Positions 31,416 to 54,298 of a stretch of 64,000 bases of DNA are shown piece by piece. The stretch's first letter is position 1. Each line of letters opens with the position of its first letter. The notes beneath the pieces are model-generated. The model was not told the origin of the DNA, did not search any database, and saw nothing but the letters and a program-made list of their open reading frames with translations. This DNA is from a virus. The DNA is taken from IMG/VR virus record IMGVR_UViG_3300027920_000641. One strand, 5' to 3'. Both the position numbers and the translations under genes were made by a program.

Positions 31416-33890
31416 ATGAAAGATAGCTTGTCGAAAATACACCTCAACATGATCGTCGGTGACTTCGAGTCACCAGAAACTCTTGATAGATCCATAAACT
31501 CAGTGAAAAAGTACGTAGACGATATCTACGTTACTGTCACTTACTCAGACAAAATCCCTACTAAAAAGTCCAAATTAATTATTCTGCTCAAGAAGCATAA
31601 GGCTCATATATCATATTTCAAATGGGTATACGATTTTTCTGCTGCTCGGCAGTTTGCTCTAGATCAAGTTCCTGTTGCTCCAGACAGCTTAGTTTACTGG
31701 CAAGACACAGATGACGTCCTAGCCAATGGTGAGTCTTTAAGAAGCATTGCCGATGAAATGGTTGAGCGCCAAGTTTCTGCCACATACTTTGACTACTGGT
31801 ACCAGGTTGAGCTCGATGAAAAAGGAGAAGTTGCTGAGATTTTAGTTAAGCATAGAAGAGAGCGCATTATTCGTCACGATAATACTTGGAAATGGGTGGG
31901 CGCTCTTCACGAGACCCTAATAGAGCAGAAGCAAGAGAATCTTATCAGGGAATTCAGGCCAGAGTGTTATGTGGTTCATCTACCAGCAAATACTCATGCC
32001 GATGTTAATATTGAGAGAAACATTGAAATATTAGAAGAGACCGCGAAAAAACAAGAGGGCAAGGATCCAAGAACTCTTATTTATCTGGCTAAGGCATACT
32101 TTGACAAAGCCAAGATGTCTGTAGGCGATGATAGGAAGATCTATTCGAATCTAGCCCTAACACTTTTCCATGACTATTTAGAGGGAAGCGGTAAGCCTGG
32201 AACAGAAGATTATCGACCTGCCTCTGGTTGGAAAGAGGAGCGATCTAGTGCCTATTCCTATGTTGCGGAAATAGCGCTGTTGTCTCAGTCTCCAGAGATT
32301 GCTATTCAGGCGTATCTTTCTGCTATCACGGAAGCTCCAGAGTTTCCAAACTACTATGTTGATCTAGCAATGGCTTACCTAGCTACTAATGACTATAAGA
32401 AAGCAAAACACTGGCTTAGGGTTTCAACCGCTGTTCCTCAGCCATCGACAACTATGATCACATTCCCAAGAGAGTTGAAGACTAGGGCTCTCGAGGTTTC
32501 TTTCCAGATTAACCTACATGAAGGAAAATTTGATGAAGCGGTACAAGACTGCGAAATGCTTGCTAAGATACTTCCTAAAGATGAGGTTATAAAAGATAGG
32601 CTCAAGACAGTGATTGCCCTTGGAAACCTAAACAAGGCTTGCCAGTCTGCTGTCTTTCTTGGAAAATATCTAGAGTCAGTCGGAGAACCAGAGAAAGTTC
32701 CTCATCTGATCAAGTCGTTCTCTAAAGATATGGAAAAAGAGAAGTTTGCCTCAGAGATGAGACATCGCTTCAATCCAGTTAGAAGATGGGAAGAAGATGA
32801 ACTAGCTATTCTTTGTGGCCCTGGCTATGAGGAGTGGACTCCAGATTCAATAAAAACTGGTCTTGGTGGTAGCGAGGAGGCAGTTGTTTATCTCTCCAAT
32901 GAGTTGAAGAAGCTCGGTTGGAAAGTGACTGTCTATGCTAACCCAGGTGGTAAGGCTGGAGATTTCGATGGCGTCAAATATGAACCATGGTATAACCTTA
33001 ATCCTCTGGATTCCTTCAATGCATTAGTCTTGTGGAGAGCTATTGGGTTTGTAGACGTTAACCCAAGAGCAAAGTTCACTATGCTATGGCTCCACGATGT
33101 TCCAAACAATCCAGATTTTACTCAAGAAAGAGTCGACAAGGTTGACAAAATAGCTGTATTATCAGAGTACCACCGATCGCTACTTCGCGTGTATAAGGAT
33201 GGAGAGTATATCCCTATGCCTGATGATAAAGTTTTCTTGACAGGTAATGGAATTCCCGAACTTGGACTAGAAACCTGGCATGGCAACCCTAAGAAAATTA
33301 TCTATGCCTCATCTATTGACAGGGGCCTAGTTTATTTGCTGAACAATTGGAAGAGGGTCATTGCAGAAGTTCCAGAGGCAGAGTTACATGTCTACTATGG
33401 TTTCGAGATTTTTGATATTATGCACCGAGACAACCCAGAGAGAATGAGGTGGAAAGAGCAAGTTCTTGGGCTAATGAACCAGCCTGGTATTATCTACCAC
33501 GGTAGAGTTGGACACGAGGAGCTGAATAAGGCATATAATAGTAGCGGTGTATGGGCGTACTCTACCGACTTTACGGAGATCAGCTGTATTTCCGCGATGA
33601 AAGCTCAGGCGCTGGGTGCTATCCCAGTAACAATGACTTTGGCTGCTCTCGATGAGACAGTTAAGAATGGTGTCAAAATTGATGCAGATATCACTTTGCC
33701 AGAGGTACAGGCGGAATATGCTGATGCTCTGATCAAGGTTTTGAAAGATGAAAAATATCAAGAAAGAATTAGAAAAAACATGATGGTCTGGGCTCGCAAA
33801 CAGTTTGCTTGGAGTAATGTTGCTGCAATTTGGGATGAGACTATGCGCGTCTGGGTTCAGAATCCAAATAAACATTGGGAGTTTAAGTAA
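31416..33890 (+). CDS. multidomain glycosyltransferase: N-terminal GT-A (GT2-like, DxD) + central TPR repeats + C-terminal GT-B (GT4-like)
   Basis: N-terminus YVTVTYSDK...WQDTDD; TPR-like LIYLAKAYFDKAKM / YVDLAMAYLATNDYKKAKHWL; C-terminus GHEELNKAYNSSGVWAYSTDFTEISCISAMKAQALGAIPV, a GT-B EX7E-type motif. Confidence 0.65.
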   Translation: MKDSLSKIHLNMIVGDFESPETLDRSINSVKKYVDDIYVTVTYSDKIPTKKSKLIILLKKHKAHISYFKWVYDFSAARQFALDQVPVAPDSLVYWQDTDDVLANGESLRSIADEMVERQVSATYFDYWYQVELDEKGEVAEILVKHRRERIIRHDNTWKWVGALHETLIEQKQENLIREFRPECYVVHLPANTHADVNIERNIEILEETAKKQEGKDPRTLIYLAKAYFDKAKMSVGDDRKIYSNLALTLFHDYLEGSGKPGTEDYRPASGWKEERSSAYSYVAEIALLSQSPEIAIQAYLSAITEAPEFPNYYVDLAMAYLATNDYKKAKHWLRVSTAVPQPSTTMITFPRELKTRALEVSFQINLHEGKFDEAVQDCEMLAKILPKDEVIKDRLKTVIALGNLNKACQSAVFLGKYLESVGEPEKVPHLIKSFSKDMEKEKFASEMRHRFNPVRRWEEDELAILCGPGYEEWTPDSIKTGLGGSEEAVVYLSNELKKLGWKVTVYANPGGKAGDFDGVKYEPWYNLNPLDSFNALVLWRAIGFVDVNPRAKFTMLWLHDVPNNPDFTQERVDKVDKIAVLSEYHRSLLRVYKDGEYIPMPDDKVFLTGNGIPELGLETWHGNPKKIIYASSIDRGLVYLLNNWKRVIAEVPEAELHVYYGFEIFDIMHRDNPERMRWKEQVLGLMNQPGIIYHGRVGHEELNKAYNSSGVWAYSTDFTEISCISAMKAQALGAIPVTMTLAALDETVKNGVKIDADITLPEVQAEYADALIKVLKDEKYQERIRKNMMVWARKQFAWSNVAAIWDETMRVWVQNPNKHWEFK

Positions 33891-33901
33891 AAGGAGGTTA
33901 T

Positions 33902-34102
33902 ATGCAATTTAATGAACCAAAATCTACAACGGGGGAATGTCCTGTTTGTCATAAGCCAGTGATTAGAAGAACAACTAGGGGTGGAGTAAACTTCTGCTCT
34001 AGGGTGTGTGCTAGTGCCCCAAAGTATGCACAGCGCTACCGCGGAAGCTCGTCTGGTCCACTGGATAGACCAACAATGGTATCAAAAACTAAATTAGTAT
34101 AA
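33902..34102 (+). CDS. zinc-ribbon protein
   Basis: CPVCHK...FCSRVC; AAGGAGG RBS. Confidence 0.5.
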   Translation: MQFNEPKSTTGECPVCHKPVIRRTTRGGVNFCSRVCASAPKYAQRYRGSSSGPLDRPTMVSKTKLV

Positions 34103-34114
34103 AGAAAGGACTGT

Positions 34115-34333
34115 ATGCCCGATAATAACCCAGTAACAGTAAGCGAGGAGATTGCAGACTTATTAAATCTATCTCTAGCTCTAGCTAACGCCGTAGAGTA
34201 TCGCTTCATGGCTCCAGATCATGGGGCGATCATATGGAAGAAGTTTTTACGCTCTTCCTCTATTGACGTACAAAAAGTAGAAGTCGTAAAAGAAGATAAG
34301 AAAGCCTTGAAAGGAGGAGTCTATGTTAGTTAA
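34115..34333 (+). CDS. hypothetical protein
   Basis: ORF track 72 aa. Confidence 0.45.
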   Translation: MPDNNPVTVSEEIADLLNLSLALANAVEYRFMAPDHGAIIWKKFLRSSSIDVQKVEVVKEDKKALKGGVYVS

Positions 34334-34817
34334 AAAAGTTAACCCAGATTGGATGCCGTCTGAGAATCCAGGTATCAAAGTTGGAGAGACCATTGAAATT
34401 ACCAATCCGAGACAACTTGTACTAGATGGTACTGTAGTTGCCGTTGGTGAACATGGTGAGGAGCAAAGTCCATATGAGTTGTATGGTGTGTTAGTAGATG
34501 CCGAACTTGAAGAGTTTAAAGAATTCGCTAAGATGAAGCAAGCAAACGCTTTAAAGAAGAGGTTGGAATCAGAACAAGAGGATTTGCAAAAACTCTCCGC
34601 TGAGTTAGATAAAAAAGAAGCTATGGTTACTCCAGCTGCGCCTGCCCCTGCGCCAGTAGCTGCCCCAGCTACGGTAGAACCAGTCGCTCCAGCTACTAGT
34701 GAGCCAGTTAGATATACCGATGCTACAGCATGGTCAGAGCTTGTAAAAGCTGGTAATGCCCGTGGTATATATAAAGTCGGTATGAACAAAAAAGAGCTTG
34801 TTGCTGCTCTAAACTAG
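34323..34817 (+). CDS. hypothetical protein with Ala/Pro linker
   Basis: ORF track 164 aa; AAGGAGGAGTCT-ATG; the opposite-strand 180-aa ORF is a low-complexity shadow. Confidence 0.5.
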   Translation: MLVKKVNPDWMPSENPGIKVGETIEITNPRQLVLDGTVVAVGEHGEEQSPYELYGVLVDAELEEFKEFAKMKQANALKKRLESEQEDLQKLSAELDKKEAMVTPAAPAPAPVAAPATVEPVAPATSEPVRYTDATAWSELVKAGNARGIYKVGMNKKELVAALN

Positions 34818-34830
34818 AAAGGAGGGGACT

Positions 34831-35712
34831 ATGGCGATAAAGAATCGTCAAACGATCCTTTTTATCTATGACATGGAACCAGAAATGGTTCCGCTATGGA
34901 AAGACGGCTTGTGGGCCGCTCTTCAGATTCTCAGGAAAGATTTCAGCGTAGTAATGGTGAATCTGCAAGAAAAACCTGGTTTTGATTCCCTGGCCACCAC
35001 AAATGGTTCGAAGATATTTGCGCTTGCCTGGGGGGCATTTGGTAGTAGACCAGAACAGTTCTTGTTTGGTCGCCCGAATCAGTTCTATGCAGCTCGCGGT
35101 TTGTGTCTAGCTGGTTATTCTCTTCCATCGCTTGGGTTAACTAATAACTACGATGTCGTATTCTACGAAAACAACTGGGCGCTGGAGTGGTTGAAATCTC
35201 CCCAAGTAAGTCGGGTGTTTAAAAACGAGCCAGCCTTGGTTCATGCCTTTGGAGTTAATACCAATATTTTTAAACCAGACGATGCTTTAAAATACGGAGC
35301 TAATGCACCAGTTTTAGATTATCTCTCAGTTGGTAGCTTTTCATACTGGAAACGTCATCAGAACTTAATTCAGAAAAAAGGAGTTAGACTGGCTGTTGGA
35401 CAAGTTCAGAAAAACAACCTTGTTGAATCGGTAGATATAATGGGTCAGCTTATGTTGAACGGTGTGGGTGTGATGGATTCCATTGAACCGTGCAAGCTGC
35501 AAGCACTTTACAATTTGGCTAACGTTGTTTATATTGGTGCTGAACTAATGGGCGGTGGTGAGAGAGCAGTTTTAGAAGCTAGGGCTTGTGGCAGAAACGT
35601 AGAGATAGAAAAAGACAACCTAAAATTAGCAGAATTGCTTCATTCTCCCATTTGGGATGAGGAATATTATGCGTATAGTCTTCGAGAGGCTATAACAAGT
35701 GCCATTTTGTAA
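34831..35712 (+). CDS. glycosyltransferase-like protein (GT-B C-terminal-like)
   Basis: AAAGGAGGGGACT-ATG; NLANVVYIGAELMGGGERAVLEARACGRNVEI resembles the GT-B donor-binding motif. Confidence 0.4.
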   Translation: MAIKNRQTILFIYDMEPEMVPLWKDGLWAALQILRKDFSVVMVNLQEKPGFDSLATTNGSKIFALAWGAFGSRPEQFLFGRPNQFYAARGLCLAGYSLPSLGLTNNYDVVFYENNWALEWLKSPQVSRVFKNEPALVHAFGVNTNIFKPDDALKYGANAPVLDYLSVGSFSYWKRHQNLIQKKGVRLAVGQVQKNNLVESVDIMGQLMLNGVGVMDSIEPCKLQALYNLANVVYIGAELMGGGERAVLEARACGRNVEIEKDNLKLAELLHSPIWDEEYYAYSLREAITSAIL

Positions 35713-35769
35713 TAAAAAGCCGTTTTTGAGCCTTACACGGGCTCGTCTCGAGTAAAAAAGTATGAAAAT

Positions 35770-36363
35770 ATGTTATCTATAGTCATTCCGACCTATACAT
35801 TGAATAAAGAGCTAGAGGAACTAGCAATAAGATGCCTTCTCAGTTACAAAGACTATGCCGACGAAGTGATTGTAACGGAAGATGGCGGAATGTTTTCTCC
35901 AATGTTAATGGAAATGTCCGATCATTATATTTATAACAAAAAGAATGTCGGGTTTACACGAAACGTGAACACTGGTTGGAGATTTTCTAGTGGCGACTAT
36001 ACTGCCATCATTAACTCCGACACAGAGTTAACTAGTGGCAATTTGGCTGATTTGTGTATTCCTGGAAAAGTAACGAGCCCACATATTTCTAACCAATATA
36101 TTGATAGACTAGCTGGACCGTTTTTTGTAGTTCCTGAAACGGTGAAAGAAGAGCGTGGTCTTTTGATCGAAGATATGAAAACCTATTCATCAGATTCTGA
36201 GTTTGACGCGAGGGTAGCTGACATCTTTATGAAGGTTCCTTCTGTAGTTATTTACCACGAGCAGGCACAAACAGTAAAAGCGGCTGGGGTTGAGGGTGGT
36301 GCAGAACAAGCTAGGGATAGGGAAATTTATGCTCAGCTCATAAGGGACGGAAAGGCAAAATGA
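35770..36363 (+). CDS. family-2 glycosyltransferase
   Basis: MLSIVIPTYT N-terminus, VTEDGG, NVGFTRNVNTGW, as in the GT-A fold. Confidence 0.65.
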   Translation: MLSIVIPTYTLNKELEELAIRCLLSYKDYADEVIVTEDGGMFSPMLMEMSDHYIYNKKNVGFTRNVNTGWRFSSGDYTAIINSDTELTSGNLADLCIPGKVTSPHISNQYIDRLAGPFFVVPETVKEERGLLIEDMKTYSSDSEFDARVADIFMKVPSVVIYHEQAQTVKAAGVEGGAEQARDREIYAQLIRDGKAK

Positions 36364-37025
36364 GAAAGCCCACTGCTCATTGCATTGATTGCGATAAGCT
36401 AATCTGGACATCACACAACCAGCTTCGTTGCAAATCTTGCTCTTTGAAAGGATCATTAAACCCTAATTGGAATCCACATCGAATTAGAACTTGCAAACTA
36501 TGTGGGTCTAAGGTCAGTAAAAATAGTAGCGGTTTATGTCAGCCTTGTTATAGGAGAAATATCCCAACTAAATTAGAAAATCCGTTGTCAAAGGGGAGAT
36601 ATCAGCCCTGTTTAGTCTGTGATCAACCAGTCTGGGTTCCTCCTTGTTATTTTGGGATTAAAAAGTTATGTAGCTCGAAATGTAAAAGCATATACTGGTC
36701 ACAAAAAACAGGTGATAAGAATTTTAACTGGAGGGGCGGTTCCTCCTTTGGCAATTACCCATCTGGATTTAATCGAATCTTAAAAGAAATTATCAGGAAA
36801 AGGTGCGGCAGAGTATGTTTGGGGTGTGGGAAAATGGAAGAGGATGAGTTAAGATCATTAAATAAGAAATTATCAGTTCATCACGTTGATTATAATAAAG
36901 ATAATTTAAATTTAAACAACTTAATATTGTTGTGCTCTTCTTGTAACAGTAAGGCCAATGCTAACAGACCGAGTTGGACATATTATTATCAAGTAAGATA
37001 TGGATTATTACAATATGAAAATTAA
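36360..37025 (+). CDS. HNH endonuclease with multiple zinc ribbons
   Basis: CIDC..CKSC, CKLCG..CQPCY, then LSVHHVDYNKDNLNLNNLILLCSSCNSKAN as the HNH motif. Confidence 0.75.
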   Translation: MRKPTAHCIDCDKLIWTSHNQLRCKSCSLKGSLNPNWNPHRIRTCKLCGSKVSKNSSGLCQPCYRRNIPTKLENPLSKGRYQPCLVCDQPVWVPPCYFGIKKLCSSKCKSIYWSQKTGDKNFNWRGGSSFGNYPSGFNRILKEIIRKRCGRVCLGCGKMEEDELRSLNKKLSVHHVDYNKDNLNLNNLILLCSSCNSKANANRPSWTYYYQVRYGLLQYEN

Positions 37026-37449
37026 TTTAGGAAGTGGAACAGATTACAGAAAGGGATGGATTAATATTGAGGTGTCTAAAGATGTAAAGGCAGATTATTA
37101 TCTTGACGTTGCGAAAGAAGTGTTGCCGTTTGCCGATGGTTCTATCGATCATATAGAAGCTATAGACTTGTTTGAACATATTTTATATCCTATTTTCACA
37201 TTCAATGAATGTTGGAGAGTTTTAAGAAAGAATGGGACAATGTATATTGAAGTACCCTATGGAGGTACAGAGGATTACTATAAAGATCCAACTCACGTGA
37301 GACCTTTTATCCCAAAAACATTCAAATATTTTGCGGAGTGGAATACCTCTCCAGCTTATGGAATCAAAACATGGGAAATTATTAGAATCCACTCAACATT
37401 GGGCGGAGAAAATCAAAATAGAATTTATGTCACCATGAGAAAACCATGA
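37000..37449 (+). CDS. class I SAM-dependent methyltransferase (Methyltransf_11-like)
   Basis: INLGSG (motif I), LPFADGSIDHIEAIDLFEHI, VLRKNGTMYIEVP (post-II/III). Confidence 0.65.
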   Translation: MDYYNMKINLGSGTDYRKGWINIEVSKDVKADYYLDVAKEVLPFADGSIDHIEAIDLFEHILYPIFTFNECWRVLRKNGTMYIEVPYGGTEDYYKDPTHVRPFIPKTFKYFAEWNTSPAYGIKTWEIIRIHSTLGGENQNRIYVTMRKP

Positions 37450-38270
37450 CAATCTATCTTAATTGTGAAGATAACAAGATCACGCTAAATAAGAAAAACT
37501 ACCTGATGAGGGCAGCTGAGCAGATGGGTATTAACGTTTTTTTCCAGTGGACTCCTCCCTGTGAAGCTGAATTTGTTCTTAATATTGAGCCATACTCCAC
37601 TCTAAGAACTGGAACCAAATGGACTGGGGCATGGTGGATAGACACGCTCTTAGACAATGTTAGATTCAATACTGAGTTTTCTTATATAGATACAATCTTT
37701 CTCGCAGGCAATTCCCATAGGATAGAGCCCAGAGATAATCATCGGCTGCTTTTCCAAGCTGCGGATTCTGAGATTCATAGACCAGTGGCAGTAGAAAAAG
37801 ACTGTGACTTCATTTTAGCTGGGTCTATGGGTCTAGACATTTATAGGGAAAGAGAGGCCGCAATCAAAGCACTTAGAAGTGAGGGTTTTGTTTTTGTAGG
37901 AGCGGGGAAAGACTTTGCTCCCAATGAATATGTTAAACAATTGAATAGGGCAAAAGTCCAGTTTATTCGTTCAATGGATGTTGATGGCCATGGTGAAGTT
38001 GCTCAAAGATTTTTTGAATGCCTAGCTATTGGCCCAGTGCTTACTAATTGGACGGATGACTTAGTCCACACTGGCCTAGTTGAGGGAGTTGATTACTTAG
38101 CATATCGTACTATTGATGAGCTTGTGCAAAAAATGCACATGTTGGTAGATGATCATAGTTATGCTCAGAAAATTGCAGAAAATGGTAGATACAAGTCGAG
38201 GCTATATCATACATACCAACATAGGGTTCTAACCATTATGGAAGTAATAAGGGAATATTCTTTGCCATGA
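37446..38270 (+). CDS. glycosyltransferase, GT-B fold (Glycos_transf_1-like C-terminal domain)
   Basis: RFFECLAIGPVLTNWTDDLVHTGLVEGVDYLAYRTIDELVQKMHMLVDD matches the E..A.G.PV...DG GT1/GT4 signature. Confidence 0.5.
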   Translation: MTIYLNCEDNKITLNKKNYLMRAAEQMGINVFFQWTPPCEAEFVLNIEPYSTLRTGTKWTGAWWIDTLLDNVRFNTEFSYIDTIFLAGNSHRIEPRDNHRLLFQAADSEIHRPVAVEKDCDFILAGSMGLDIYREREAAIKALRSEGFVFVGAGKDFAPNEYVKQLNRAKVQFIRSMDVDGHGEVAQRFFECLAIGPVLTNWTDDLVHTGLVEGVDYLAYRTIDELVQKMHMLVDDHSYAQKIAENGRYKSRLYHTYQHRVLTIMEVIREYSLP

Positions 38271-38815
38271 TAGATAGTGACCACTCTAAAAAACAAGATC
38301 TTTTCTGGGAGCATTGGGTTGGCCCAATGAACCATTCGGTTAGAAACAAGCGTTTCTTCTGGTGTCTTGAGAAAATGAAGGAGCAAAAGATTAAAACAGT
38401 GATGGATGTTGGGTGTGGTCCAGGATGGCACACAAAGATACTTTTTGATTCTGGCTATGATGTAACTGGCAGCGATATAAGTATCGAGGCAATAAAAATA
38501 GCTAGAGAGAATTTTCCAGATTTGAAATTTCTAGAAATATCTGCTGAGGCCATCGATGGAAGATTCGATGCCATTATTTGTTTGGCAGTACTTAGCATGG
38601 TTGAAGATGACGACAGGGCTGTTCGCCAGCTGGCAAGACATGCACAACTAGGCTACTTTTCTTTACCTACCTACGCAGACCACGAGTTGCACTTGAGGAA
38701 ATATGATCTAGAAAGTGCTAAGAGGCTAATGGAGAAGTATGGAGAAATTATCAATATCGAGATTATGGGTGACCAAGTAATGGTAGAGATAAGATTCTAT
38801 GATAAAACTATTTGA
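38267..38815 (+). CDS. class I SAM-dependent methyltransferase
   Basis: VMDVGCGPGWHTKILFDSGYDVTGSDIS (motif I plus acidic loop), FDAIICLAVL. Confidence 0.8.
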   Translation: MIDSDHSKKQDLFWEHWVGPMNHSVRNKRFFWCLEKMKEQKIKTVMDVGCGPGWHTKILFDSGYDVTGSDISIEAIKIARENFPDLKFLEISAEAIDGRFDAIICLAVLSMVEDDDRAVRQLARHAQLGYFSLPTYADHELHLRKYDLESAKRLMEKYGEIINIEIMGDQVMVEIRFYDKTI

Positions 38816-39647
38816 ACTATACCAGCCACCAGAAGTAGAGATTGCGATCTCGCAAGTTTTAAAGAGTGGCAGATATGTGAAGGGTCCACTTGCTATAGAG
38901 TTCGCTCGGGTTTGGGCAGCTCGGTGTGGAATGAAATACGGAGTATCTGTTGGAAGTGGCGCCCAGGCGCTAGAACTGGCTATACGGGCAGTTTTTGGAG
39001 ATGGGAGATCAACTATTACCTATACTCCCCATACCTTTAAGGCAGTTCCTAACGCAATCAGATTAATGGGTCACATCGCTATCGGACAGCTTTATGAACC
39101 GATGTTATATGCACACCATATCCATGATCACAAACTGGACTATGTTCCATTTCTTGAGGATTGCTCTCATTGTCATGGAGTTGAGCCAGTTGCTGAGACG
39201 GCTATTTTTTCCTTATTTCCAGCAAAAATACTGGGAGCCGTTGGAGAAGCTGGGGTGATTGTAACTAACAACATAAATGTTTTCAAGTTTTGTTCCCAAC
39301 TGGCAGATCATGCTGAACCAGATGGTACAAATGCCAGAATGGATGAAATTCAGGCGGCAGCCCTACTGGCTAAGTTACCGTATTTAGATAGATGGACACA
39401 AAGAAGAAAAGAAATAGTCAAAATGTATGATGCTGGACTTGGGATGCATACCCCTGGGGAGTATCACTACATGTACTGTATCGATGGAAACCAGGGTATG
39501 GTTGATAAGTTATTGTCATTTGAAATTGAATCCAAACTAGTCTATAATGAACCATACGTAGCCCTGCCATTCTACCCAGAATTGACTAATGAACAGGTGC
39601 GAGAAATCATAAGATGCGTCACTCAATTATCGGAAACGGCTTTATAG
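38799..39647 (+). CDS. DegT/DnrJ/EryC1/ArnB-family sugar aminotransferase (short form)
   Basis: VLKSGRYVKGPLAIEFARVWAARCGMKYGVSVGSGAQALELAIRA is the DegT N-terminal signature; FSLFPAKILGAVGEAGVIVTNN is the PLP-Lys region; 282 aa versus about 370 typical. Confidence 0.6.
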   Translation: MIKLFELYQPPEVEIAISQVLKSGRYVKGPLAIEFARVWAARCGMKYGVSVGSGAQALELAIRAVFGDGRSTITYTPHTFKAVPNAIRLMGHIAIGQLYEPMLYAHHIHDHKLDYVPFLEDCSHCHGVEPVAETAIFSLFPAKILGAVGEAGVIVTNNINVFKFCSQLADHAEPDGTNARMDEIQAAALLAKLPYLDRWTQRRKEIVKMYDAGLGMHTPGEYHYMYCIDGNQGMVDKLLSFEIESKLVYNEPYVALPFYPELTNEQVREIIRCVTQLSETAL

Positions 39648-40423
39648 CCGAGAAACACGCTGAAGCGATTAAGCAGTATGGTGGAGAGCTCTACGGTAGT
39701 TATGATACTATTCCCTCCAGAGCAAAATACGGAATTCCTTTTTCTAACCCAGAAGAGCTAATTGAGAAAAGTGACGTTATTCATATTTGTGCCCCAAATG
39801 TTTTTCATATTCCCTATCTCAATATGTGTAAGGGTAAAAAGGTGATTGTTGAGAAACCTATCGGGATTAGTGTTGAGCAGACTAAGTTGATTACCAATAA
39901 TAATGCGGCCGTGTGCTACCAGAGGAGATTCAATAAACAGTGTCAAGAAATAAAAATGATGTGTGGCATAGAGAAGCCTACCCATATTTTTGCTAACATT
40001 TTCGTACAAAGAGATCCTCAATACTGGGAGTGTTGGAGGGGGGACAAAGATTATTCTGGTGGTGGAGCATTCATGAATATTGGTATTCACTATCTTGATT
40101 TAATGCAGTGGTGGACTGGAGAAGCTGGTAGGGTAGAAAAAGCCGAAATAGGGGTGTTTGACAGGGCTGTAGATGAGGGTGGTTCTGCTGAGCTGGTTTT
40201 TGGAGAGACTAAGGCAAGAATGCTCTTATCGTCACGATTCCATAAGAGGGAAATAGAGGTAATGGTAGTTTGGAAAAATAGGACTTTTATATACGATGTT
40301 GATGATGCCACTCATCTAGATGTTATGCGGGATTATCTGGGAAATGGAATTTCTTTTGTTACTCCAAGAGAAGCAATCCCCAGTCTCAAATTAGCAGAAG
40401 AGATATATAAAATAAGCGCTTAG
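39614..40423 (+). CDS. Gfo/Idh/MocA-family NAD-dependent sugar oxidoreductase (WbpB-like)
   Basis: IIGNGFIAEKHAEAI Rossmann motif, VIHICAPNVFH, EKPIGISVEQ, the classic family motifs. Confidence 0.75.
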   Translation: MRHSIIGNGFIAEKHAEAIKQYGGELYGSYDTIPSRAKYGIPFSNPEELIEKSDVIHICAPNVFHIPYLNMCKGKKVIVEKPIGISVEQTKLITNNNAAVCYQRRFNKQCQEIKMMCGIEKPTHIFANIFVQRDPQYWECWRGDKDYSGGGAFMNIGIHYLDLMQWWTGEAGRVEKAEIGVFDRAVDEGGSAELVFGETKARMLLSSRFHKREIEVMVVWKNRTFIYDVDDATHLDVMRDYLGNGISFVTPREAIPSLKLAEEIYKISA

Positions 40424-40425
40424 TA

Positions 40426-41169
40426 ATGAAAATAAGTGTAGTAACACCAAGTATAAGAAAGGAAGGACTTTATGTCGTCAAAGAAGCTCTCAAAAGGCAA
40501 ACAAACCAGGACTTCGAATGGCTCATTGGGAGCTCGTTCGATCCAAAAATACCAGATGGGATCTGGGTTAGAGACGATTTTCTGGGTGGGTATTGGTCTC
40601 TTAACCGTATTTACAATCGGCTTTTTAGCAGGGTATCAGGTGAAATTGTGGTTTCCTGGCAAGATTGGATATACGCCGATAGAGAAGCCCTTGATAAATT
40701 CTTGTTCAATGTCTCCAGAGTATCAGCAGTGGTATCAGGAGTCGGTGATCAATATGAAAGAGTCGGACAGTTCGGCAAACCTGAAATAAAAATATGGTCT
40801 GATCCAAGAAAGACCGACAAATATGGCAGTTTCTATGAATGCAATCCGAGTGATGCCGAGTGGAATTTCTGTGCTTTCCCCACTTCATTTATCTATGATG
40901 TGGGGGGTTTTTGTGAAAAGTTAGATTGGACTGGGTTTGGAATGGATGGATATCAGGTTAATGAGAGATGGGATCTTTTGGGTTATAAATTTTATCTTGA
41001 CCAAGCTAATGAGTCTTATACTATTAGGCATGATAGAAGTGCCCATGGAGGAAAGGAAAACTGGAATCAAAATAATAATCTTTCAAATGGTCAATATGAA
41101 AAGGTTCGTCAGGAGTTTATTAATAAGGGAGAATGGCCAAGAATGAAATATTTAGGCATTAATAAATAG
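40426..41169 (+). CDS. family-2-like glycosyltransferase
   Basis: MKISVVTPSIRKEG N-terminus of GT-A type; 247 aa. Confidence 0.5.
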   Translation: MKISVVTPSIRKEGLYVVKEALKRQTNQDFEWLIGSSFDPKIPDGIWVRDDFLGGYWSLNRIYNRLFSRVSGEIVVSWQDWIYADREALDKFLFNVSRVSAVVSGVGDQYERVGQFGKPEIKIWSDPRKTDKYGSFYECNPSDAEWNFCAFPTSFIYDVGGFCEKLDWTGFGMDGYQVNERWDLLGYKFYLDQANESYTIRHDRSAHGGKENWNQNNNLSNGQYEKVRQEFINKGEWPRMKYLGINK

Positions 41170-41174
41170 TTGCT

Positions 41175-41909
41175 ATGTCATACAAAAATAAAGCAGATGC
41201 CTTGTTATATTATAAAAAATGGTATCAAAAAGTAAAACATCGTTATTCCAAGTTGTGTATTCATTGTCAAAATAGTTTTCAAACAAGATATAAACAACAA
41301 TCATGCTGTTCACTGGCCTGTGCTGGAGCACATAGAAAAAATACAGTTATTTGTTTACAATGTGGTAGAGCTTTTTATGCACCTCCTTCAAAGAAAAGAA
41401 GATTCTGTTCACAAAAGTGTTTTATGTCGTCTCCAGCTCAAAAAGAGGTAATGAGAATACGCATGCAACAGCGATGGGCAGATGGGGAATTTAAAGATTT
41501 TAAGTGGCCTGGACCCTCCGCCGAATACAGAGAGTGTTGTAGAGCGAGATTCAGAAAACTAACGGGAAATAGAAATCATATGTGGAAGGGCGGTATCTCA
41601 AAGGTAAAAAATCAAGTCAGAAAAATGCCAGAATATAAAAAGTGGAGAAATAGTATTTTTGAACGTGACAACTACACATGTTTACTATGTGGTGGGAGAA
41701 GCAAAAAGGGTTGTCATCAGGATATAAATGCAGATCATCACCCAATTGCTTTTGCTAAAATTATTGCAGAAAACAATATCGAGAATATACGGAATGCTTC
41801 TGTTTGTACGTTATTATGGGATATTAACAATGGGAGAACTCTTTGTCTCAATTGTCATAAAGATGTGACTTTTAAAAACCTGGCCAGTCTTGGACTTTCT
41901 AAAACGTAG
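41175..41909 (+). CDS. HNH endonuclease with multiple zinc ribbons
   Basis: CIHC..CCSLAC, CLQCG..FCSQKC, CLLCGG...HHPIAFAKII...LCLNCHKD. Confidence 0.75.
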   Translation: MSYKNKADALLYYKKWYQKVKHRYSKLCIHCQNSFQTRYKQQSCCSLACAGAHRKNTVICLQCGRAFYAPPSKKRRFCSQKCFMSSPAQKEVMRIRMQQRWADGEFKDFKWPGPSAEYRECCRARFRKLTGNRNHMWKGGISKVKNQVRKMPEYKKWRNSIFERDNYTCLLCGGRSKKGCHQDINADHHPIAFAKIIAENNIENIRNASVCTLLWDINNGRTLCLNCHKDVTFKNLASLGLSKT

Positions 41910-41924
41910 TTAGTGTGATATGAC

Positions 41925-42404
41925 ATGTGTATGACAGAAAAAGTGGTAGCGCCAGTCTCTGCACCAGTAGTTGCACCAGTTGCTGCACAATCTCCCACTG
42001 TTCAAATTACTGTTCAGAATCCAACCCAGACAGCTCCAGTAGAAACTCCTAAAGAAGTTCCACCGTTATCTGGACCAGATACGGATACTATTATTCCTAA
42101 AGAACCATACTACATGGACCCTATGTTTTATGAGGTGGCTAATTACTTTGGAATTAAGCAAGAAGAATATTCTGCCGCGAAACTTAAATTGTCAGATATA
42201 GTTGACTACATTATCCAGGAAAAGAAATCTAATAAAACTGAAGACATTATCATTGGCCTTAGAGAGCTAGAAGACTCAGTGCAACCCCCAGCTTGGGGAG
42301 AACGCAGGTATACCAACGTACATCGCTATGTTCGTTTAGCGAGTAAAAAGAATGCTATTGAGCAGGCTATGGGCGCGTTTAAAAAAGGAGGTTTCAGTGG
42401 GTAA
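41925..42404 (+). CDS. hypothetical protein with Pro/Val/Ala-rich N-terminus
   Basis: ORF track 159 aa. Confidence 0.5.
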   Translation: MCMTEKVVAPVSAPVVAPVAAQSPTVQITVQNPTQTAPVETPKEVPPLSGPDTDTIIPKEPYYMDPMFYEVANYFGIKQEEYSAAKLKLSDIVDYIIQEKKSNKTEDIIIGLRELEDSVQPPAWGERRYTNVHRYVRLASKKNAIEQAMGAFKKGGFSG

Positions 42405-42768
42405 TCTATCTGGCAGAATGCCAACCCAAGCATTGGACAAGGAACAATCGGACAGGGTAGAACGCCGAAGAAGAGTGGCCACATACGTTGACGGGAATGT
42501 AATTGCGTATGAGTCTGTGAATTTCACTGTCTCAGAAGACCAGTCTGTTTTGAATGTTATTACGGACTTGGGGCGTAAATGCCACACTGGTTATTTCATC
42601 AATGATGGACCAGGAGATATCAAGGTTGAGTTCAGCATCGATGGGACAAACTATGGTGGTCTTCACGTATTGCGTGGCGGAGATGCCATTTCCTTAGATG
42701 ATCTGAATATTAGTAAAATACGGCTAACTTACGTAGATGACTGTGAGTTTCGCTGTCTAGTGGGGTAA
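42397..42768 (+). CDS. hypothetical protein
   Basis: GTG start 5 nt after AAGGAGG; track ORF 42352..42768 trimmed. Confidence 0.45.
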   Translation: MGNLSGRMPTQALDKEQSDRVERRRRVATYVDGNVIAYESVNFTVSEDQSVLNVITDLGRKCHTGYFINDGPGDIKVEFSIDGTNYGGLHVLRGGDAISLDDLNISKIRLTYVDDCEFRCLVG

Positions 42769-42769
42769 T

Positions 42770-43006
42770 ATGAGCACAATTATACCGAGAAGAAGTTCTG
42801 GGGAAGTAACTACTTTAATTGATGACGCGGGCGGTGACACGACCTATTTTGGGCGAGCTAAACTCGGGACTGCCACCAATGTCTCAAAATGGCAAATACT
42901 GCGCATATCAGTGGACGGAACAGTAGTTATGTTCCAGTACGCAAATGGTAGTCGAAGATACAACCAAAAGTGGGATGATAGGGCAGATTTAACATATTCT
43001 AATTAG
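42770..43006 (+). CDS. hypothetical protein
   Basis: ORF track 78 aa. Confidence 0.45.
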   Translation: MSTIIPRRSSGEVTTLIDDAGGDTTYFGRAKLGTATNVSKWQILRISVDGTVVMFQYANGSRRYNQKWDDRADLTYSN

Positions 43007-43027
43007 TAATTTTTCGGAATAACCAGA

Positions 43028-43885
43028 GTGGCATTGTTAACAATCATAATTCCATCGAAAACTGAGCGTTTTTTAGAAAAGACGATTCGTGATGTTCTGC
43101 TCAACGCAACTGGTGATATTGAGATTTTACCTATTCTAGATGGTTACAGTGTCCCAAAAGAGGAGTTTGTTGATGACGCTCGAGTCAGGTATCTTTCGAT
43201 GCCTCCATCAAAACATACTCAAAAACGACAGGGTATTAATCTTGGAGTTGCAGAGGCAACTGGTGAGTATGTGATGTCTCTTGATGCGCACTGTTTGGTG
43301 GCCAGAGGTTTTGATGAACAATTAATTAAGGACCACCAACCAAACTGGGTGCAAATCCCTCGTAGACACAGGCTTGACGCAGAAAAATGGGACTTACAAC
43401 CACAGGGGGATAAAAGACCGCCTATTGATTATGAATATATTATGTTTCGTCCACTAATTTCAAAAGATCAAATGGGTTTGCACGGTTTCAAGTGGGAATC
43501 AAAGACCATTGAAAAAATGGATATACCCATCGATGACACAATCACTTTCCAGGGTTCCTGCTGGTTCATGACTAAAGACTGGTTTAATAAAATGGGTTTC
43601 ATGGATCTTGCCTACACGGGTTGGGGTCAAGAGGCAGAGGAAATCAGTTTTACTACCTGGAAGAATGGCGGTAGAGTAGTGACTAACAAGAATACTTACT
43701 ACGCTCACCTTCACAAGGGGGCTAAGTATGGGCGCATGTACTGGATGAGTCGAGATGAAAATCGTAAGAGCTATGCATATTCTTCCGATTTCTGGTTGAA
43801 TAAAAACAGGGACTTTTTTATTAGTTTAGTAGAAAAATTTATGCCCATGCCAGGGTGGCCAAAGGATTGGAGAAAGTTATTATGA
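43028..43885 (+). CDS. family-2 glycosyltransferase (DAH-motif type)
   Basis: LLTIIIPSKTERFL, ILPILDG, MSLDAHC, QGSCWFMTKDWF; paralogous to the N-terminal domain of 45930..47534. Confidence 0.65.
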   Translation: MALLTIIIPSKTERFLEKTIRDVLLNATGDIEILPILDGYSVPKEEFVDDARVRYLSMPPSKHTQKRQGINLGVAEATGEYVMSLDAHCLVARGFDEQLIKDHQPNWVQIPRRHRLDAEKWDLQPQGDKRPPIDYEYIMFRPLISKDQMGLHGFKWESKTIEKMDIPIDDTITFQGSCWFMTKDWFNKMGFMDLAYTGWGQEAEEISFTTWKNGGRVVTNKNTYYAHLHKGAKYGRMYWMSRDENRKSYAYSSDFWLNKNRDFFISLVEKFMPMPGWPKDWRKLL

Positions 43886-44490
43886 ATGCACTAGATTATT
43901 TTGTTGACAAATATAAAATAGATTTGAGTCAGCCTTCTCCTATTTTTGTTCCAATCGGTAGGTTCAAGGATATCCCAAAACTTTTTGCAGAGCTTGGATA
44001 TACTGAAGGCGCCGAGATTGGGGTATATCGAGGTAGTTATAGTGAAACTCTACTTAAAAGAATCCCTAATTTGCACCTTATTGGAGTCGATTTGTGGGAG
44101 ACTTATCGGGGTTATAAAGATTTCTCTTCAACAGATATAGTTGATGCCGAATCAGAAGCCAGAGAACGTACCAAAAAATACAATTGTCAGATGGTTAAGG
44201 GGTGGAGTGACGAAGTTGCAAAAACAATTCCCGACGAAAGTTTGGACTTTGTTTTTATTGATGGCAATCATAACTACGAATGGTGTGTATGGGATCTTGC
44301 TAACTGGTCGAGAAAAGTTAAAAAAGGCGGTATTATTTATGGGCATGATTACGATGACTATTCTAGGTCGAAACGGTGGGCAGAGATGCAAGTTATTCCA
44401 GCGGTAAACGGATGGATGGAGGCGAAAAAAATTAGTCCCTGGTTTGTAATTACAAACAATAAGAATCGTTGCTGGATGTATGTTAAATAG
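43855..44490 (+). CDS. class I SAM-dependent O-methyltransferase (Methyltransf_24/TylF-like)
   Basis: GAEIGVYRGSYS, LIGVDLWE, DFVFIDGNHNYEWCVWDL, GGIIYGHDY. Confidence 0.65.
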   Translation: MAKGLEKVIMNALDYFVDKYKIDLSQPSPIFVPIGRFKDIPKLFAELGYTEGAEIGVYRGSYSETLLKRIPNLHLIGVDLWETYRGYKDFSSTDIVDAESEARERTKKYNCQMVKGWSDEVAKTIPDESLDFVFIDGNHNYEWCVWDLANWSRKVKKGGIIYGHDYDDYSRSKRWAEMQVIPAVNGWMEAKKISPWFVITNNKNRCWMYVK

Positions 44491-45166
44491 GGTTTCAATC
44501 ATTATCCCAGTTTATCAAAGTCACGAAATCGTAAGAAGGCAGTTGCTTTATTTGGATCGACTAAGTCTTCCGATCGAAGTAATTATAGTTGATGACAATT
44601 CAACTCCGCCTATTGACGGGGCAACATTACGGATGAACAACGATTTAGCATGGACACAGGGACTTGCCCGTAATGCTGGAGCAGAGTATGCATCTGGGAA
44701 TTATTTGTTTATGACAGATATAGACCATATTCTTTCGAAAGAAGCCATTGAGGATGCCCTAGTTTTCACGGGAAATAAAATGATATTTAGAAGACAAATA
44801 GCCATACTCGATGAAAACGGAGAAATTAGACAAGACAGTACCACCCTGGAGGATTGGGGTTACGAGAATAAAAACCTAGGCGCCTCTGTTCATGGAAATA
44901 CGTTTGTAATTAAGAAGACGGTTTTTGATGAACTTGGTGGCTATGACGAGCATGCTTGTACTAGAGGGTATCACCCTGTTTCTAGGAGTGGCGATGATTG
45001 TTTTTTTAACTCTAAATGGAATAAGAAATATAGGGGGGAAGCTCCAGCCGTTGGAAGAGATATTTATATGTTTCCCATCGGTCGATTTCATAAAAATGGC
45101 GATCTAAATCCGAAGGGCCTATTCCATAATTTAAGTCAAAGCAAGCAAGAAAGGATGTACAAATGA
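44480..45166 (+). CDS. family-2 glycosyltransferase
   Basis: VSIIIPVYQS, EVIIVDDNS, GLARNAGAEYASGNYLFMTDIDHIL (DxD). Confidence 0.8.
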   Translation: MLNRVSIIIPVYQSHEIVRRQLLYLDRLSLPIEVIIVDDNSTPPIDGATLRMNNDLAWTQGLARNAGAEYASGNYLFMTDIDHILSKEAIEDALVFTGNKMIFRRQIAILDENGEIRQDSTTLEDWGYENKNLGASVHGNTFVIKKTVFDELGGYDEHACTRGYHPVSRSGDDCFFNSKWNKKYRGEAPAVGRDIYMFPIGRFHKNGDLNPKGLFHNLSQSKQERMYK

Positions 45167-45948
45167 ACAAAGCGATAATTGGCTATGGCTGGGTTGGAAA
45201 GGCGATGAGCGTCCTTTTCCCAGATGCTTTTATTTATGACCCATATTATTTTGACGATTCTGGTTCTGTTTTTTTGAGTGATCAAAATGTCGTTAATGAA
45301 TGTGATGTTGCTTTTATATGTGTTCCGACTCCAAGTATTGACGGAGGGAAACTGGATGTCTCTATTGTGGAAGAAATTGTTGGCTGGTGCAAATGCCCAC
45401 TGATTGTTATCCGCTCTACTGTCAACCCAGGAACCTGTGATTATCTTGCAAAAAAGTATAATAAGCGCTTAGTGATGCAACCAGAGTATTTAGGAGAAAC
45501 CATTAACCACCCGATGACCGACCAAAAAACTCGTCCATTTCTAATCATCGGTGGTGAACCCGATGACCGAAGAATGCTGATTGATCTTTACACATCAGCT
45601 TATAACGCTAACATCAACATCCGACAAGTAACTGCTTATGAAGCAGAAGTTATCAAACTCTCTGAGAACAGAGCTATAGCCTTCAAAATTGCTGAGTGTC
45701 AGGAGTTATATGATGTCTGTATGGCCTCAGGCGTTGATTACTATGTTATAAGAGAGGCGGTTTATTCTGACGACCCGCGCTTTAACCTATGGTGGACATT
45801 CATTTATCCAGAAAGAAGGGGGTTCAATTCCAAGTGTTTGCCAAAGGATGTATACGCTTGGGCAGCTTGGGCAGAATCAGTCGGTTATAAACCAGCGGTA
45901 ACAAGAGCATTGCTTGAAAGGAACAAACAATGGACCTCTCAATTTTAA
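45163..45948 (+). CDS. UDP-glucose/GDP-mannose dehydrogenase-family protein (short, WbpA-like)
   Basis: IIGYGWVGKA NAD motif, CDVAFICVPTPS, catalytic-Cys motif FNSKCLPKDV; 261 aa, so the C-terminal UDP-binding domain is absent. Confidence 0.6.
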   Translation: MNKAIIGYGWVGKAMSVLFPDAFIYDPYYFDDSGSVFLSDQNVVNECDVAFICVPTPSIDGGKLDVSIVEEIVGWCKCPLIVIRSTVNPGTCDYLAKKYNKRLVMQPEYLGETINHPMTDQKTRPFLIIGGEPDDRRMLIDLYTSAYNANINIRQVTAYEAEVIKLSENRAIAFKIAECQELYDVCMASGVDYYVIREAVYSDDPRFNLWWTFIYPERRGFNSKCLPKDVYAWAAWAESVGYKPAVTRALLERNKQWTSQF

Positions 45949-47534: not shown

Positions 47535-47535
47535 C

Positions 47536-47922
47536 ATGTATAATGCAGAAATAAAAGCATCAATTTTAAGTTTTTGTATACTCTTAATTATAAGTCCATT
47601 AGCAGTACATAATCAAGTGAATGATTATCGTATAGAAAATAAGTTACAACCGTTAGTATTTAATAAGAGTTTGTGTAAAGTAGCAGAAGTACGAGCGAAT
47701 CAGATACAAACAGATTGGTCACACAAAAGTTTTTTTAAAGAAGTAAAAAAAATTAAATATGCACAAGCTGGTGAAAATTTAGCAAAAGATTTTAATAATG
47801 AAGAAGATTTAGTAAATGCATGGATAAACTCAAAAGCGCATAGACAAAATTTATTAAGACCATATACACGGCATTGTATAGCTTGTGTTAATAATCATTG
47901 TGTACAAATACTTATAAGGTAG
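47536..47922 (+). CDS. secreted CAP/SCP/PR-1-like (YkwD-type) protein
   Basis: Signal peptide, then GENLAKDFNNEEDLVNAWINSKAHRQNLLRPYTRHC matching the SCP-like GEN...W..S.gHr.N.L pattern; strongly AT-rich codon usage. Confidence 0.55.
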   Translation: MYNAEIKASILSFCILLIISPLAVHNQVNDYRIENKLQPLVFNKSLCKVAEVRANQIQTDWSHKSFFKEVKKIKYAQAGENLAKDFNNEEDLVNAWINSKAHRQNLLRPYTRHCIACVNNHCVQILIR

Positions 47923-47942
47923 CAAATTAATAAAATTATTTT

Positions 47943-48617
47943 ATGAAAAAAACAATTTTCACTTTAAATGTTAATAGTTACTCACCAGAAATAACAACAC
48001 TTACATATCCTCTTATTCATAAGTATGCTGAAAAAATAGGTGCTGATTTTTATGTTATTTCAAAACGTAAATATCCAGATATGCCTGTAACATATGAAAA
48101 ATTGCAAATTTATGATTTAGCAAGAGAAATGGGCAATGATTGGAATATTTATCTTGATTCAGATACATTAGTACATCCAGATACAGTTGATTTTACATCT
48201 TTAATTTCTAAAGATACAGTTATGCACAATGGTGCAGACATGGCAAGCATTCGCTGGAGATATGATAATGTATTTTTGCGAGATGGTAGAGATATTGGAT
48301 CATGTAACTGGATGGCAATTGCTTCTGATTGGTGTTTAGATCTTTGGAGTCCACTTGATATTCCGCTTCAAGAAGCGTTAAATAATATTTTTCCTACAGC
48401 AAATGAATTGCAAACAAATATTACTAAAGAACATTTAATCGATGACTATACTTTGTCAAGAAATATCGCGCGATATGGATTAAAATTTATTACAGCAAAG
48501 GATGTAATGAAACAAAAGGGTATTGAGGCTGCTAATTTTTTCTGGCATCAATACACATTACCAACAGATGAAAAGGTGGTGGAAATTAGAAAAATAATTA
48601 AAGCGTGGGGGATATAA
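47943..48617 (+). CDS. putative GT-A-fold glycosyltransferase-like protein
   Basis: YLDSDTLV DxD-like motif; AT-rich like the preceding gene. Confidence 0.35.
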   Translation: MKKTIFTLNVNSYSPEITTLTYPLIHKYAEKIGADFYVISKRKYPDMPVTYEKLQIYDLAREMGNDWNIYLDSDTLVHPDTVDFTSLISKDTVMHNGADMASIRWRYDNVFLRDGRDIGSCNWMAIASDWCLDLWSPLDIPLQEALNNIFPTANELQTNITKEHLIDDYTLSRNIARYGLKFITAKDVMKQKGIEAANFFWHQYTLPTDEKVVEIRKIIKAWGI

Positions 48618-48618
48618 A

Positions 48619-54240: not shown

Positions 54241-54268
54241 CCACCTAATAAAAGAGGTGGTTTTTTTT
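54241..54268 (+). terminator. rho-independent terminator
   Basis: ccacct-aataaaag-aggtgg followed by T8. Confidence 0.75.
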
Positions 54269-54298
54269 ATTACTAAGCGCTTATTACAAGGAAATTCT

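Follow-up and report, generated by a model that had tools for sequence, protein, structure and literature searches.

The 64,000-nucleotide (nt) stretch of viral DNA analyzed here in full (IMG/VR record IMGVR_UViG_3300027920_000641; hereafter the window) belongs to a tailed phage, encoding an SU10-type portal, major capsid protein and adaptor, as well as tail proteins and an RtcB ligase. A glycan-biosynthesis island of ~18 kb, located between the capsid and adaptor genes, holds the pair of genes that is our main subject: one for a short DegT-family aminotransferase (DegT) and one for a short Gfo/Idh/MocA oxidoreductase (GFO). A third gene, further along the same island, encodes a protein resembling UDP-glucose dehydrogenase (UGDH-like). 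An initial annotation of the DNA had placed all three in one pathway to a 3-amino, possibly uronic, sugar donor, modeled on the Pseudomonas enzymes WbpB, WbpE, and WbpA. The three genes are present as open reading frames (ORFs) where that annotation had put them, and Pfam assigns each to the expected family above its cut-off. We argue below that the pair probably makes a 3-amino sugar, and that the UGDH-like gene belongs to a separate module.

DegT is a 282-amino-acid (aa) protein that matches PF01041 in two stretches, scoring 113.9 bits (cut-off 19.8; E-value 1.3e-32). When 5.8 billion proteins were searched, it fell into a short clade of ~42 members, 271–293 aa long and 45–91% identical; beyond this clade there is a gap, and then canonical enzymes of 350–400 aa appear at no more than 30% identity. 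Relative to these, the clade has six deletions that together amount to ~90 aa. The residues K143, E120-D121, S138, N178, and R180 are invariant in the 42 clade members, with K143 and E120-D121 also invariant in five canonical sequences. The Schiff-base Lys143, within the motif SLFPAKILGA (SxxxxK), aligns with Lys185 of WbpE and with the DesV/7b0d motif, while Asp121 is present at the position predicted to bind the ring nitrogen of pyridoxal phosphate (PLP). An AlphaFold (AF2) model built from the clade alignment has a mean local confidence (pLDDT) of 94.3 and a global score (pTM) of 0.91. Searched with Foldseek, this model matches sugar 3-aminotransferases with query TM-scores (TMq) of 0.80–0.88 and target TM-scores (TMt) of about 0.65, 282 aa being superposed on complete fold-type I enzymes of ~360–400 aa.

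The DegT clade profile ranks its solved relatives in an informative order. The top match in the PDB is the sugar transaminase 7b0d of A. veneficus (164 bits), followed by HCAN_0200, WlaRG, DesV, QdtB, WbpE, and Pcryo_0616 at 113–140 bits; lower scores go to NtdA (94), KabA (85), perosamine synthase (84), ArnB (76), and PseC (56). Foldseek searches with the model give the same order, with 4-aminotransferases ranking lower; the enzymes named at the top are, almost without exception, sugar 3-aminotransferases. Judging from these relatives and from its WbpB-like partner, DegT is probably a 3-aminotransferase, and its substrate may be a UDP-3-keto sugar.

GFO, of 269 aa, clears the cut-offs of the GFO_IDH_MocA N- and C-terminal domain models, with scores of 39.5, 41.4, and 34.3 bits, and combines the Rossmann motif GxGxxA/G with EKP and NxGxH in a two-domain GFO fold. 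An exhaustive search returned 11 cluster representatives at E <1e-30, nearly all of 244–300 aa. The 12 orthologs from related loci (28–75% identity, ~252–280 aa) keep the motifs GxG, PNxxH, EKP, YQRR, and SGGG..NIGIHYLDL (SGGG..NIxIHYxDL), and the invariant positions G7, G9, E80-K81-P82, N155, and H159 line up with 3o9z and 3oa2. These two structures, WbpB from T. thermophilus (3o9z, 131.8 bits) and P. aeruginosa (3oa2, 128.9 bits), are also the best PDB matches of the GFO clade profile, over the full length, ahead of the C-glycoside 3-oxidase DgpA (107 bits), WlbA (101 and 98 bits), and inositol dehydrogenases (~78 bits). We accordingly predict a WbpB-like, NAD-dependent sugar 3-dehydrogenase.

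The two genes overlap by 34 nt. The initial annotation was right about the overlap and had the order reversed: the aminotransferase precedes the oxidoreductase, opposite to the order of the reactions. On the upstream side, the end of a methyltransferase gene and the start of DegT share 17 nt; on the downstream side, a transferase gene, u247, starts 2 nt past the GFO stop. All ORFs from the methyltransferase to u247 overlap or abut. We compared the pair in 13 distinct other loci (labeled L001, L003, L009–L014, L016, L017, L019, L089, and L171), and in every one of them a short GFO lies directly downstream of a short-clade DegT; a u247 homolog comes next after GFO in all nine loci that reach far enough. 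Measured against the closest relative, L171, the ratio of nonsynonymous to synonymous substitution rates (dN/dS) is 0.15 for DegT and 0.09 for GFO. Since both proteins belong to conserved clades, retain invariant catalytic residues, and evolve under purifying selection, they appear to be intact short enzymes and not dead fragments.

No 4,6-dehydratase or 3,4-ketoisomerase was found among the window ORFs scanned with Pfam, and the keto group must therefore stem from direct oxidation by GFO. With a GFO profile that matches WbpB best, a DegT profile that matches 3-aminotransferases best, and strict adjacency of the two genes, C3 oxidation followed by transamination, as the initial annotation had proposed, is the best-supported predicted chemistry for the pair. 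A 3-amino sugar is its probable product. The uronic part of the earlier proposal finds no backing other than the co-residence of the UGDH-like gene in this phage, and a 3-amino uronic sugar specifically is only a possibility.

Several observations weigh against this assignment. The best NCBIfam match of DegT, a weak one, is PseC, a 4-aminotransferase, and the best single-sequence match of GFO, equally weak, is (myo-)inositol 2-dehydrogenase. No curated NCBIfam equivalog model was passed, every score being far under cut-off; for instance, 13 of 14 GFO clade members match NF040723 at 23–60 bits against a cut-off of 450. Such matches, for DegT, GFO, and the UGDH-like protein alike, are weak and non-discriminating and thus cannot decide the substrate. 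In addition, the ~90 aa missing from DegT may include substrate-binding or dimer-interface elements, and u247 homologs also occur in islands that lack the pair (L176 and L177).

In the proposed pathway, GFO would use NAD to oxidize C3 of a nucleotide hexose supplied by the host, the simplest candidates being UDP-GlcNAc and UDP-Glc, with UDP-GlcNAcA also possible. DegT would then aminate the 3-keto intermediate, using PLP and glutamate, to yield a 3-amino-3-deoxy sugar nucleotide. By analogy with WbpB/WbpE, the NADH bound to the dehydrogenase may be re-oxidized by 2-oxoglutarate that the transaminase sets free; the chemistry of the Wbp pathway and its 2-oxoglutarate ping-pong mechanism are described in PMC10622841. 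Transferases of the island would probably incorporate the amino sugar into a late-infection glycan, whose most plausible carriers are virion proteins, for example the fiber-like Ser/Pro-repeat protein encoded next to the island. The same logic of direct oxidation followed by transamination is used by GnnA/GnnB, RifL/RifK, and NtdC/NtdA.

Table 1. Positions of the features discussed, numbered from the first nucleotide of the window.
Feature	Coordinates	Strand	Basis or remark
Pentapeptide-repeat protein	626–1150	−	
SPFH/Band7 protein	3784–4614	−	
RtcB RNA ligase	17043–18260		
SU10-type portal	24064–26217		
SU10-type major capsid protein (SU10_MCP)	29417–30247		PF17236, E 3e-57
Glycan-biosynthesis island, ~18 kb	31416–49533	+	between SU10_MCP and SU10_adaptor
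Class I S-adenosylmethionine methyltransferase, 182 aa	38267–38815	+	Methyltransf_11/25/23
DegT-family PLP sugar aminotransferase, 282 aa, probable 3-aminotransferase	38799–39647	+	PF01041 DegT_DnrJ_EryC1
WbpB-like Gfo/Idh/MocA NAD-dependent sugar 3-dehydrogenase (predicted), 269 aa	39614–40423	+	Pfam, WbpB profile match
u247, GT-A fold glycosyltransferase	40426–41169	+	AF2 model and Foldseek; island core transferase
HNH homing-endonuclease-like insertion, outside the pathway	41175–41909	+	phrog_1271 HNH endonuclease, E 4.5e-19
Methyltransf_24 methyltransferase	43855–44490	+	Pfam
GT2 glycosyltransferase directly upstream of the UGDH-like gene	44480–45166	+	Pfam
Two-domain UGDH-like dehydrogenase without UDP-binding C-terminal domain, 261 aa	45163–45948	+	PF03721 and PF00984
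Two-domain glycosyltransferase, 534 aa (N-terminal GT2, second domain of ~230 aa)	45930–47534	+	PF00535, residues 4–107
CAP/SCP-domain protein with hydrophobic N-terminus	47536–47922		island end
Glycine-rich protein, 304 aa	48619–49533		island end; PF21722
Ser/Pro-repeat protein, 1540 aa, with two ConA-like (Laminin_G_3) domains, DUF2341, and ~600 aa of Ser/Pro repeats	49535–54157	+	Pfam
SU10_adaptor	54257–54982		
Other homing-endonuclease-like genes	14015–15016 (−), 18293–18766, 27949–28464, 28695–29201, 36360–37025		

The UGDH-like protein matches the N-terminal domain UDPG_MGDP_dh_N (PF03721) at 45.8 bits and the central domain (PF00984) at 51.8 bits, both above cut-off, and ends six residues after the latter; its alignment with 3gg2 covers residues 74–298 of 450. 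No Pfam match to the C-terminal UDP-binding domain exists in this protein, and a tblastn search with the canonical domain found nothing in the window. Thus, the initial annotation was correct in calling DegT and the dehydrogenase unusually short, at 282 and 261 aa, but the dehydrogenase lacks a whole domain and is not merely short. The catalytic lysine of DegT and cysteine of the dehydrogenase, which it had singled out for checking, are both present and invariant. In the dehydrogenase, C225, K228, and D229 (GFNSKCLPKD) align with GGSCFPKD of 3gg2 and 3vtf, and, together with K165 and N169, are among the 82 invariant columns of an alignment of 27 sequences. Against TIGR03026 the protein scores 102.5 bits, under the cut-off of 189.8, and in the comparison with L171 dS is saturated and dN is 0.145. 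A search at E <1e-5 yielded 2,360 homologs, the best 120 of which are all 250–311 aa long, 66–79% identical, and built of two domains only. Judging from these sequences, the loss of the UDP-binding domain is family-wide. A cultured cyanophage, C48C1, also has an annotated short form, of 319 aa.

With its more than 2,300 members, this family raises the question of what a nucleotide-sugar dehydrogenase oxidizes after losing its nucleotide-binding domain. It might oxidize a UDP-sugar held by a partner, or act on a sugar after its transfer. That the missing domain is supplied elsewhere in the window, or by the C-terminal half of the 534-aa glycosyltransferase encoded next to it, found no support from tblastn or Pfam.

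This transferase is the constant companion of the UGDH-like gene. Its ORF is the next one and overlaps the UGDH-like stop codon, the overlap being 19 nt, identical in locus L005. An N-terminal GT2 domain of the 534-aa type follows the UGDH-like gene in six of six contexts (the window, L171, L005, L008, L173, and L175), and the second domain of this transferase (GT2_534) is either fused to this GT2 domain or split off as a gene of its own that directly precedes the UGDH-like gene (L008 and L175). In L005, L008, L173, and L175, a Methyltransf_24 homolog is also encoded ahead of the UGDH-like gene. Near the pair, by contrast, no UGDH-like gene was found within 10 kb in 12 of the 13 other loci, including the complete islands L001, L003, and L016; the sole other pair locus to have one is L171. 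Because the UGDH-like gene is absent near the pair elsewhere and tied to GT2_534, it is not the upstream partner of the pair by inheritance. It is a separate module, and the tie that the initial annotation had drawn between the pair and a WbpA-like gene is not supported.

A copy of the Methyltransf_24, UGDH-like, and GT2 (here GT2_560) module occurs in L005, L006, and L007, on a contig named Candidatus Woesebacteria. A radical-SAM gene and a UGDH-like fusion of 621 aa accompany it, with TatA/TatC, Rho, and a LysM-M23 peptidase as neighbors, and several homologs are labeled Patescibacteria. This is possibly a hint to the host or a cellular version of the module.

Of the alternatives to the proposed pathway, the one nearest to the initial annotation has the UGDH-like protein acting as WbpA (UDP-GlcNAc to UDP-GlcNAcA) and the pair as WbpB/WbpE, yielding the 3-amino uronic sugar UDP-GlcNAc3NA. 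GFO is indeed nearest to WbpB, which acts on UDP-GlcNAcA in the Wbp pathway (PMC10622841), and the top structural matches of DegT include WbpE as well as Pcryo_0616, an enzyme that forms UDP-GlcNAc3NA; moreover, the two modules are co-resident in the window and in L171, and the catalytic Cys, Lys, Asn, and Asp of the UGDH-like protein are retained. We nevertheless regard this route as unlikely. It requires a WbpA that lacks the entire UDP-binding domain, and 12 of the 13 other pair loci, three complete islands included, would have to manage without one within 10 kb. The UGDH-like family is also ~50 times the size of the DegT clade and linked to a different gene, and identity to L171 is 91–94% for the pair and 78% for the UGDH-like gene, which points to independent exchange. 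Along the same lines, no WbpD-type acetyltransferase (LbH or GNAT) and no WbpI-type 2-epimerase were found by Pfam among the island ORFs or the window ORFs of at least 150 aa.

It is rather improbable that the pair acts on a substrate other than a nucleotide sugar, either as an NtdC/NtdA or KabC/KabA-type system making kanosamine-6-phosphate from glucose-6-phosphate, or as an inositol dehydrogenase and inosose aminotransferase making an aminocyclitol. In favor of this, DegT matches NtdA (94 bits) and KabA (85 bits) significantly, the best NCBIfam match of GFO is myo-inositol 2-dehydrogenase, and no nucleotidyltransferase was found among the Pfam-scanned ORFs of the window. However, NtdA, KabA, and BtrR score well under the 3-aminotransferases of nucleoside diphosphate (NDP) sugars, and the GFO profile gives WbpB 131.8 bits against ~78 for inositol dehydrogenases. 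An NtdB-type phosphatase is not present, and the cassette sits among glycosyltransferases, which require activated donors.

We give still less credence to a scheme in which the trimmed enzymes edit sugars already attached to a glycan or protein, the pair by oxidation and amination after transfer and the UGDH-like protein likewise at C6. What speaks for it is that the UGDH-like protein, though devoid of the nucleotide-binding domain, keeps all catalytic residues in more than 2,000 homologs, that it is always overlap-joined to, or flanked by, the two transferase halves, and that DegT and GFO each have multiple deletions. Against it, the DegT model still superposes on NDP-sugar enzymes (TMq 0.85), and enzymes of these families are not known to act on sugars bound to a polymer. 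A broader version, which we also consider improbable, is one of minimized sugar editing: the UGDH-like protein would act in complex with the transferase or on attached sugars of the mucin-like Ser/Pro protein, and the DegT-GFO pair would add a 3-amino group to the same phage-built glycan, amounting to autonomous O-glycosylation with post-transfer editing in a tailed phage. Finally, that the short genes are functionless, decaying remnants, the inactive fragments that the initial annotation had allowed for, is hardly credible: the proteins are 15–40% shorter than canonical family members, but they form conserved short clades with invariant catalytic residues and dN/dS of 0.09–0.15, their models are confident and compact, and their synteny is strict in all 13 loci.

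A nucleotide-sugar 3-amination pair remains our preferred reading. In the island around it, all genes are on the plus strand, with ORFs that overlap or abut, and they include at least nine glycosyltransferase-like genes and four methyltransferases besides the pair and the UGDH-like gene, together with a CAP-domain protein, a Gly-rich protein, and two HNH insertions. At the position equivalent to the island end, L003 has collagen-like GDTG-repeat and Gly-rich proteins.

The u247 protein, next to the pair, has no Pfam match. Its AF2 model (pLDDT 93.1) has ppGalNAc-T2/T10, K4CP, RmlT, SpsA, and TarS as top Foldseek matches at E ~1e-10, its family (374 matches) is larger than the DegT clade, and its dN/dS relative to L171 is 0.25. 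We considered u247 as a dedicated amino-sugar transferase, an idea weakened by its homologs in pair-less islands: because u247 also occurs without the pair, it is not the dedicated transferase of the pair's product. On the other side of the pair, the 182-aa methyltransferase is possibly a glycan or amino-sugar methylase. Its homologs precede the pair in L001, L013, and L171, and a short SDR takes this place in L003. It may be an N-methylase of the new amine like TylM1 or DesVI; its PDB matches are generic class I methyltransferases, TylM1 (E ~9e-5) being one of many, and L003 has the SDR instead.

Related islands carry different enzymes at the same place: a second DegT and a 215-aa SDR in L001; a 247-aa short SDR and a cytidylyltransferase in L003; a heptose-like set of SIS, GHMP-kinase, nucleotidyltransferase (NTP-transferase), and TAL genes in L173; and a PIG-L deacetylase with an Asn-synthase-like amidotransferase in L176. 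With such differing cassettes at one place, the island can be described as a hypervariable sugar-editing set around a conserved transferase core. TOD1_MUCI70 is also found among the cassettes of the related islands (L001, L003, L173, L176, and L177), and many cassette enzymes there are likewise shorter than usual. Identity between the window and L171 changes abruptly from gene to gene: it is 100% in flanking genes (37446–38270, 43028–43885, and the 182-aa methyltransferase), 91–94% in DegT and GFO, and 78–83% in u247 and in the segment 45163–47534, where the UGDH-like gene stands at 78% and GT2_534 at 83%. This sharp mosaic indicates recent module-swapping recombination within the island.

Homing-endonuclease-like genes are unusually numerous in the window (four HNH, one LAGLIDADG, and one NUMOD3 plus endonuclease VII), and two of them interrupt the island. 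The one at 41175 is not at the equivalent position in L001, L003, and L010, and L171 has a different, shorter HNH gene there. No tRNA genes were found in the window.

Directly after the island comes the 1540-aa Ser/Pro-repeat protein. Within its residues 901–1500, each 100 aa contain 41–57% Ser and 15–23% Pro (roughly 55% and 20% for the ~600 residues), arranged in SPSxSPS repeats; the repeat gene also accounts for a dip in GC skew at 52–54 kb. A protein of like kind, with 969 aa and SPS repeats, follows the island in L008 (10262–13171). Position and composition make the 1540-aa protein a candidate glycan acceptor or virion fiber, and the island may serve virion glycosylation. Glycosylation of virion proteins by phages, mycobacteriophages among them, is known (Freeman et al. 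2023, as cited in PMC12619734).

The DegT-GFO cassette has been found in a single lineage of uncultured SU10-like phages. When the region was compared by blastn with 50,697 phage records, there were no matches, and no cultured relative lends its annotation; tblastn with the GFO and UGDH-like proteins gave distant matches only, at no more than 32% identity, and the short DegT clade was not found in the 50,697 records. A scan of viral contigs with the single DegT protein confirmed nothing, and the best viral structural match of DegT is a 316-aa protein at 19% identity. The clade is present in metagenomes and in one of 185,579 species-representative genomes, there on a 13-kb contig. Among 148 canonical DegT loci from metagenomes and genomes, just three have a GFO gene within 3 kb, and a clear cellular donor of the cassette was not found.

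If the pair is active, it would comprise the smallest known DegT aminotransferase and WbpB-type dehydrogenase, a minimal scaffold for making 3-amino sugars, and an uncultured SU10-like lineage would make rare amino sugars itself, beyond transferring those of its host. The location of the island between capsid and adaptor genes, beside Ser/Pro-repeat and lectin-domain proteins, suggests elaborate virion glycosylation well outside the mycobacteriophages.

Among known systems, the closest likeness is to WbpB/WbpE (also WlbA/WlbC) of the UDP-ManNAc3NAcA pathway in P. aeruginosa, Bordetella pertussis, and T. thermophilus (PMC10622841), which likewise combines a Gfo/Idh/MocA 3-dehydrogenase with a DegT 3-aminotransferase. 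The phage proteins are shorter by ~45 aa (269 aa against ~312–318 aa for WbpB) and ~80 aa, respectively, and their genes overlap in reversed order. Compared with the five-enzyme Wbp pathway (WbpA, B, E, D, and I), WbpD and WbpI are missing, and the WbpA-like gene is separate and domain-deficient. GnnA/GnnB, of lipid A synthesis, and an archaeal UDP-GlcNAc 3-dehydrogenase with its aminotransferase convert UDP-GlcNAc into UDP-GlcNAc3N. The phage pair may be likened to these two steps without prior C6 oxidation, a chemistry that fits the missing UGDH-like gene in most pair-carrying phages, and 7b0d, the best match of DegT, is archaeal. However, the phage GFO scores far under the equivalog cut-off of the archaeal type NF040723, and no solved GnnA or GnnB structure was among those compared.

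The dTDP-sugar 3-aminotransferases DesV, QdtB, WlaRG, and HCAN_0200 are top profile and fold matches of DegT, but their substrates are 3-keto-6-deoxy sugars formed by a 4,6-dehydratase and a 3,4-ketoisomerase, whereas the partner of the phage enzyme is GFO. With the WbpA/Ugd/AlgD family, the UGDH-like protein shares the N-terminal NAD domain, the central domain, the Cys of GxxxC(L/F)PKD, and the Lys/Asn of ExxKxxxN; it differs in lacking the ~150-aa C-terminal UDP-binding domain and in its tight coupling to a two-domain GT2.

At the level of whole clusters, the virion-glycosylation genes of mycobacteriophages, as cited in PMC12619734, and those of giant viruses similarly place glycosyltransferases and methyltransferases beside structural genes, and giant viruses have autonomous glycosylation machinery with DegT-type aminotransferases for rare amino sugars (PMC4691112, PMC9614988). 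The present system differs in residing in an SU10-like tailed phage, in an ~18 kb island with an oxidoreductase-aminotransferase cassette. The chemistry is familiar; the novel features are its miniaturized, phage-restricted form, its fixed place in an island of the structural module, and the separate, domain-deficient dehydrogenase.

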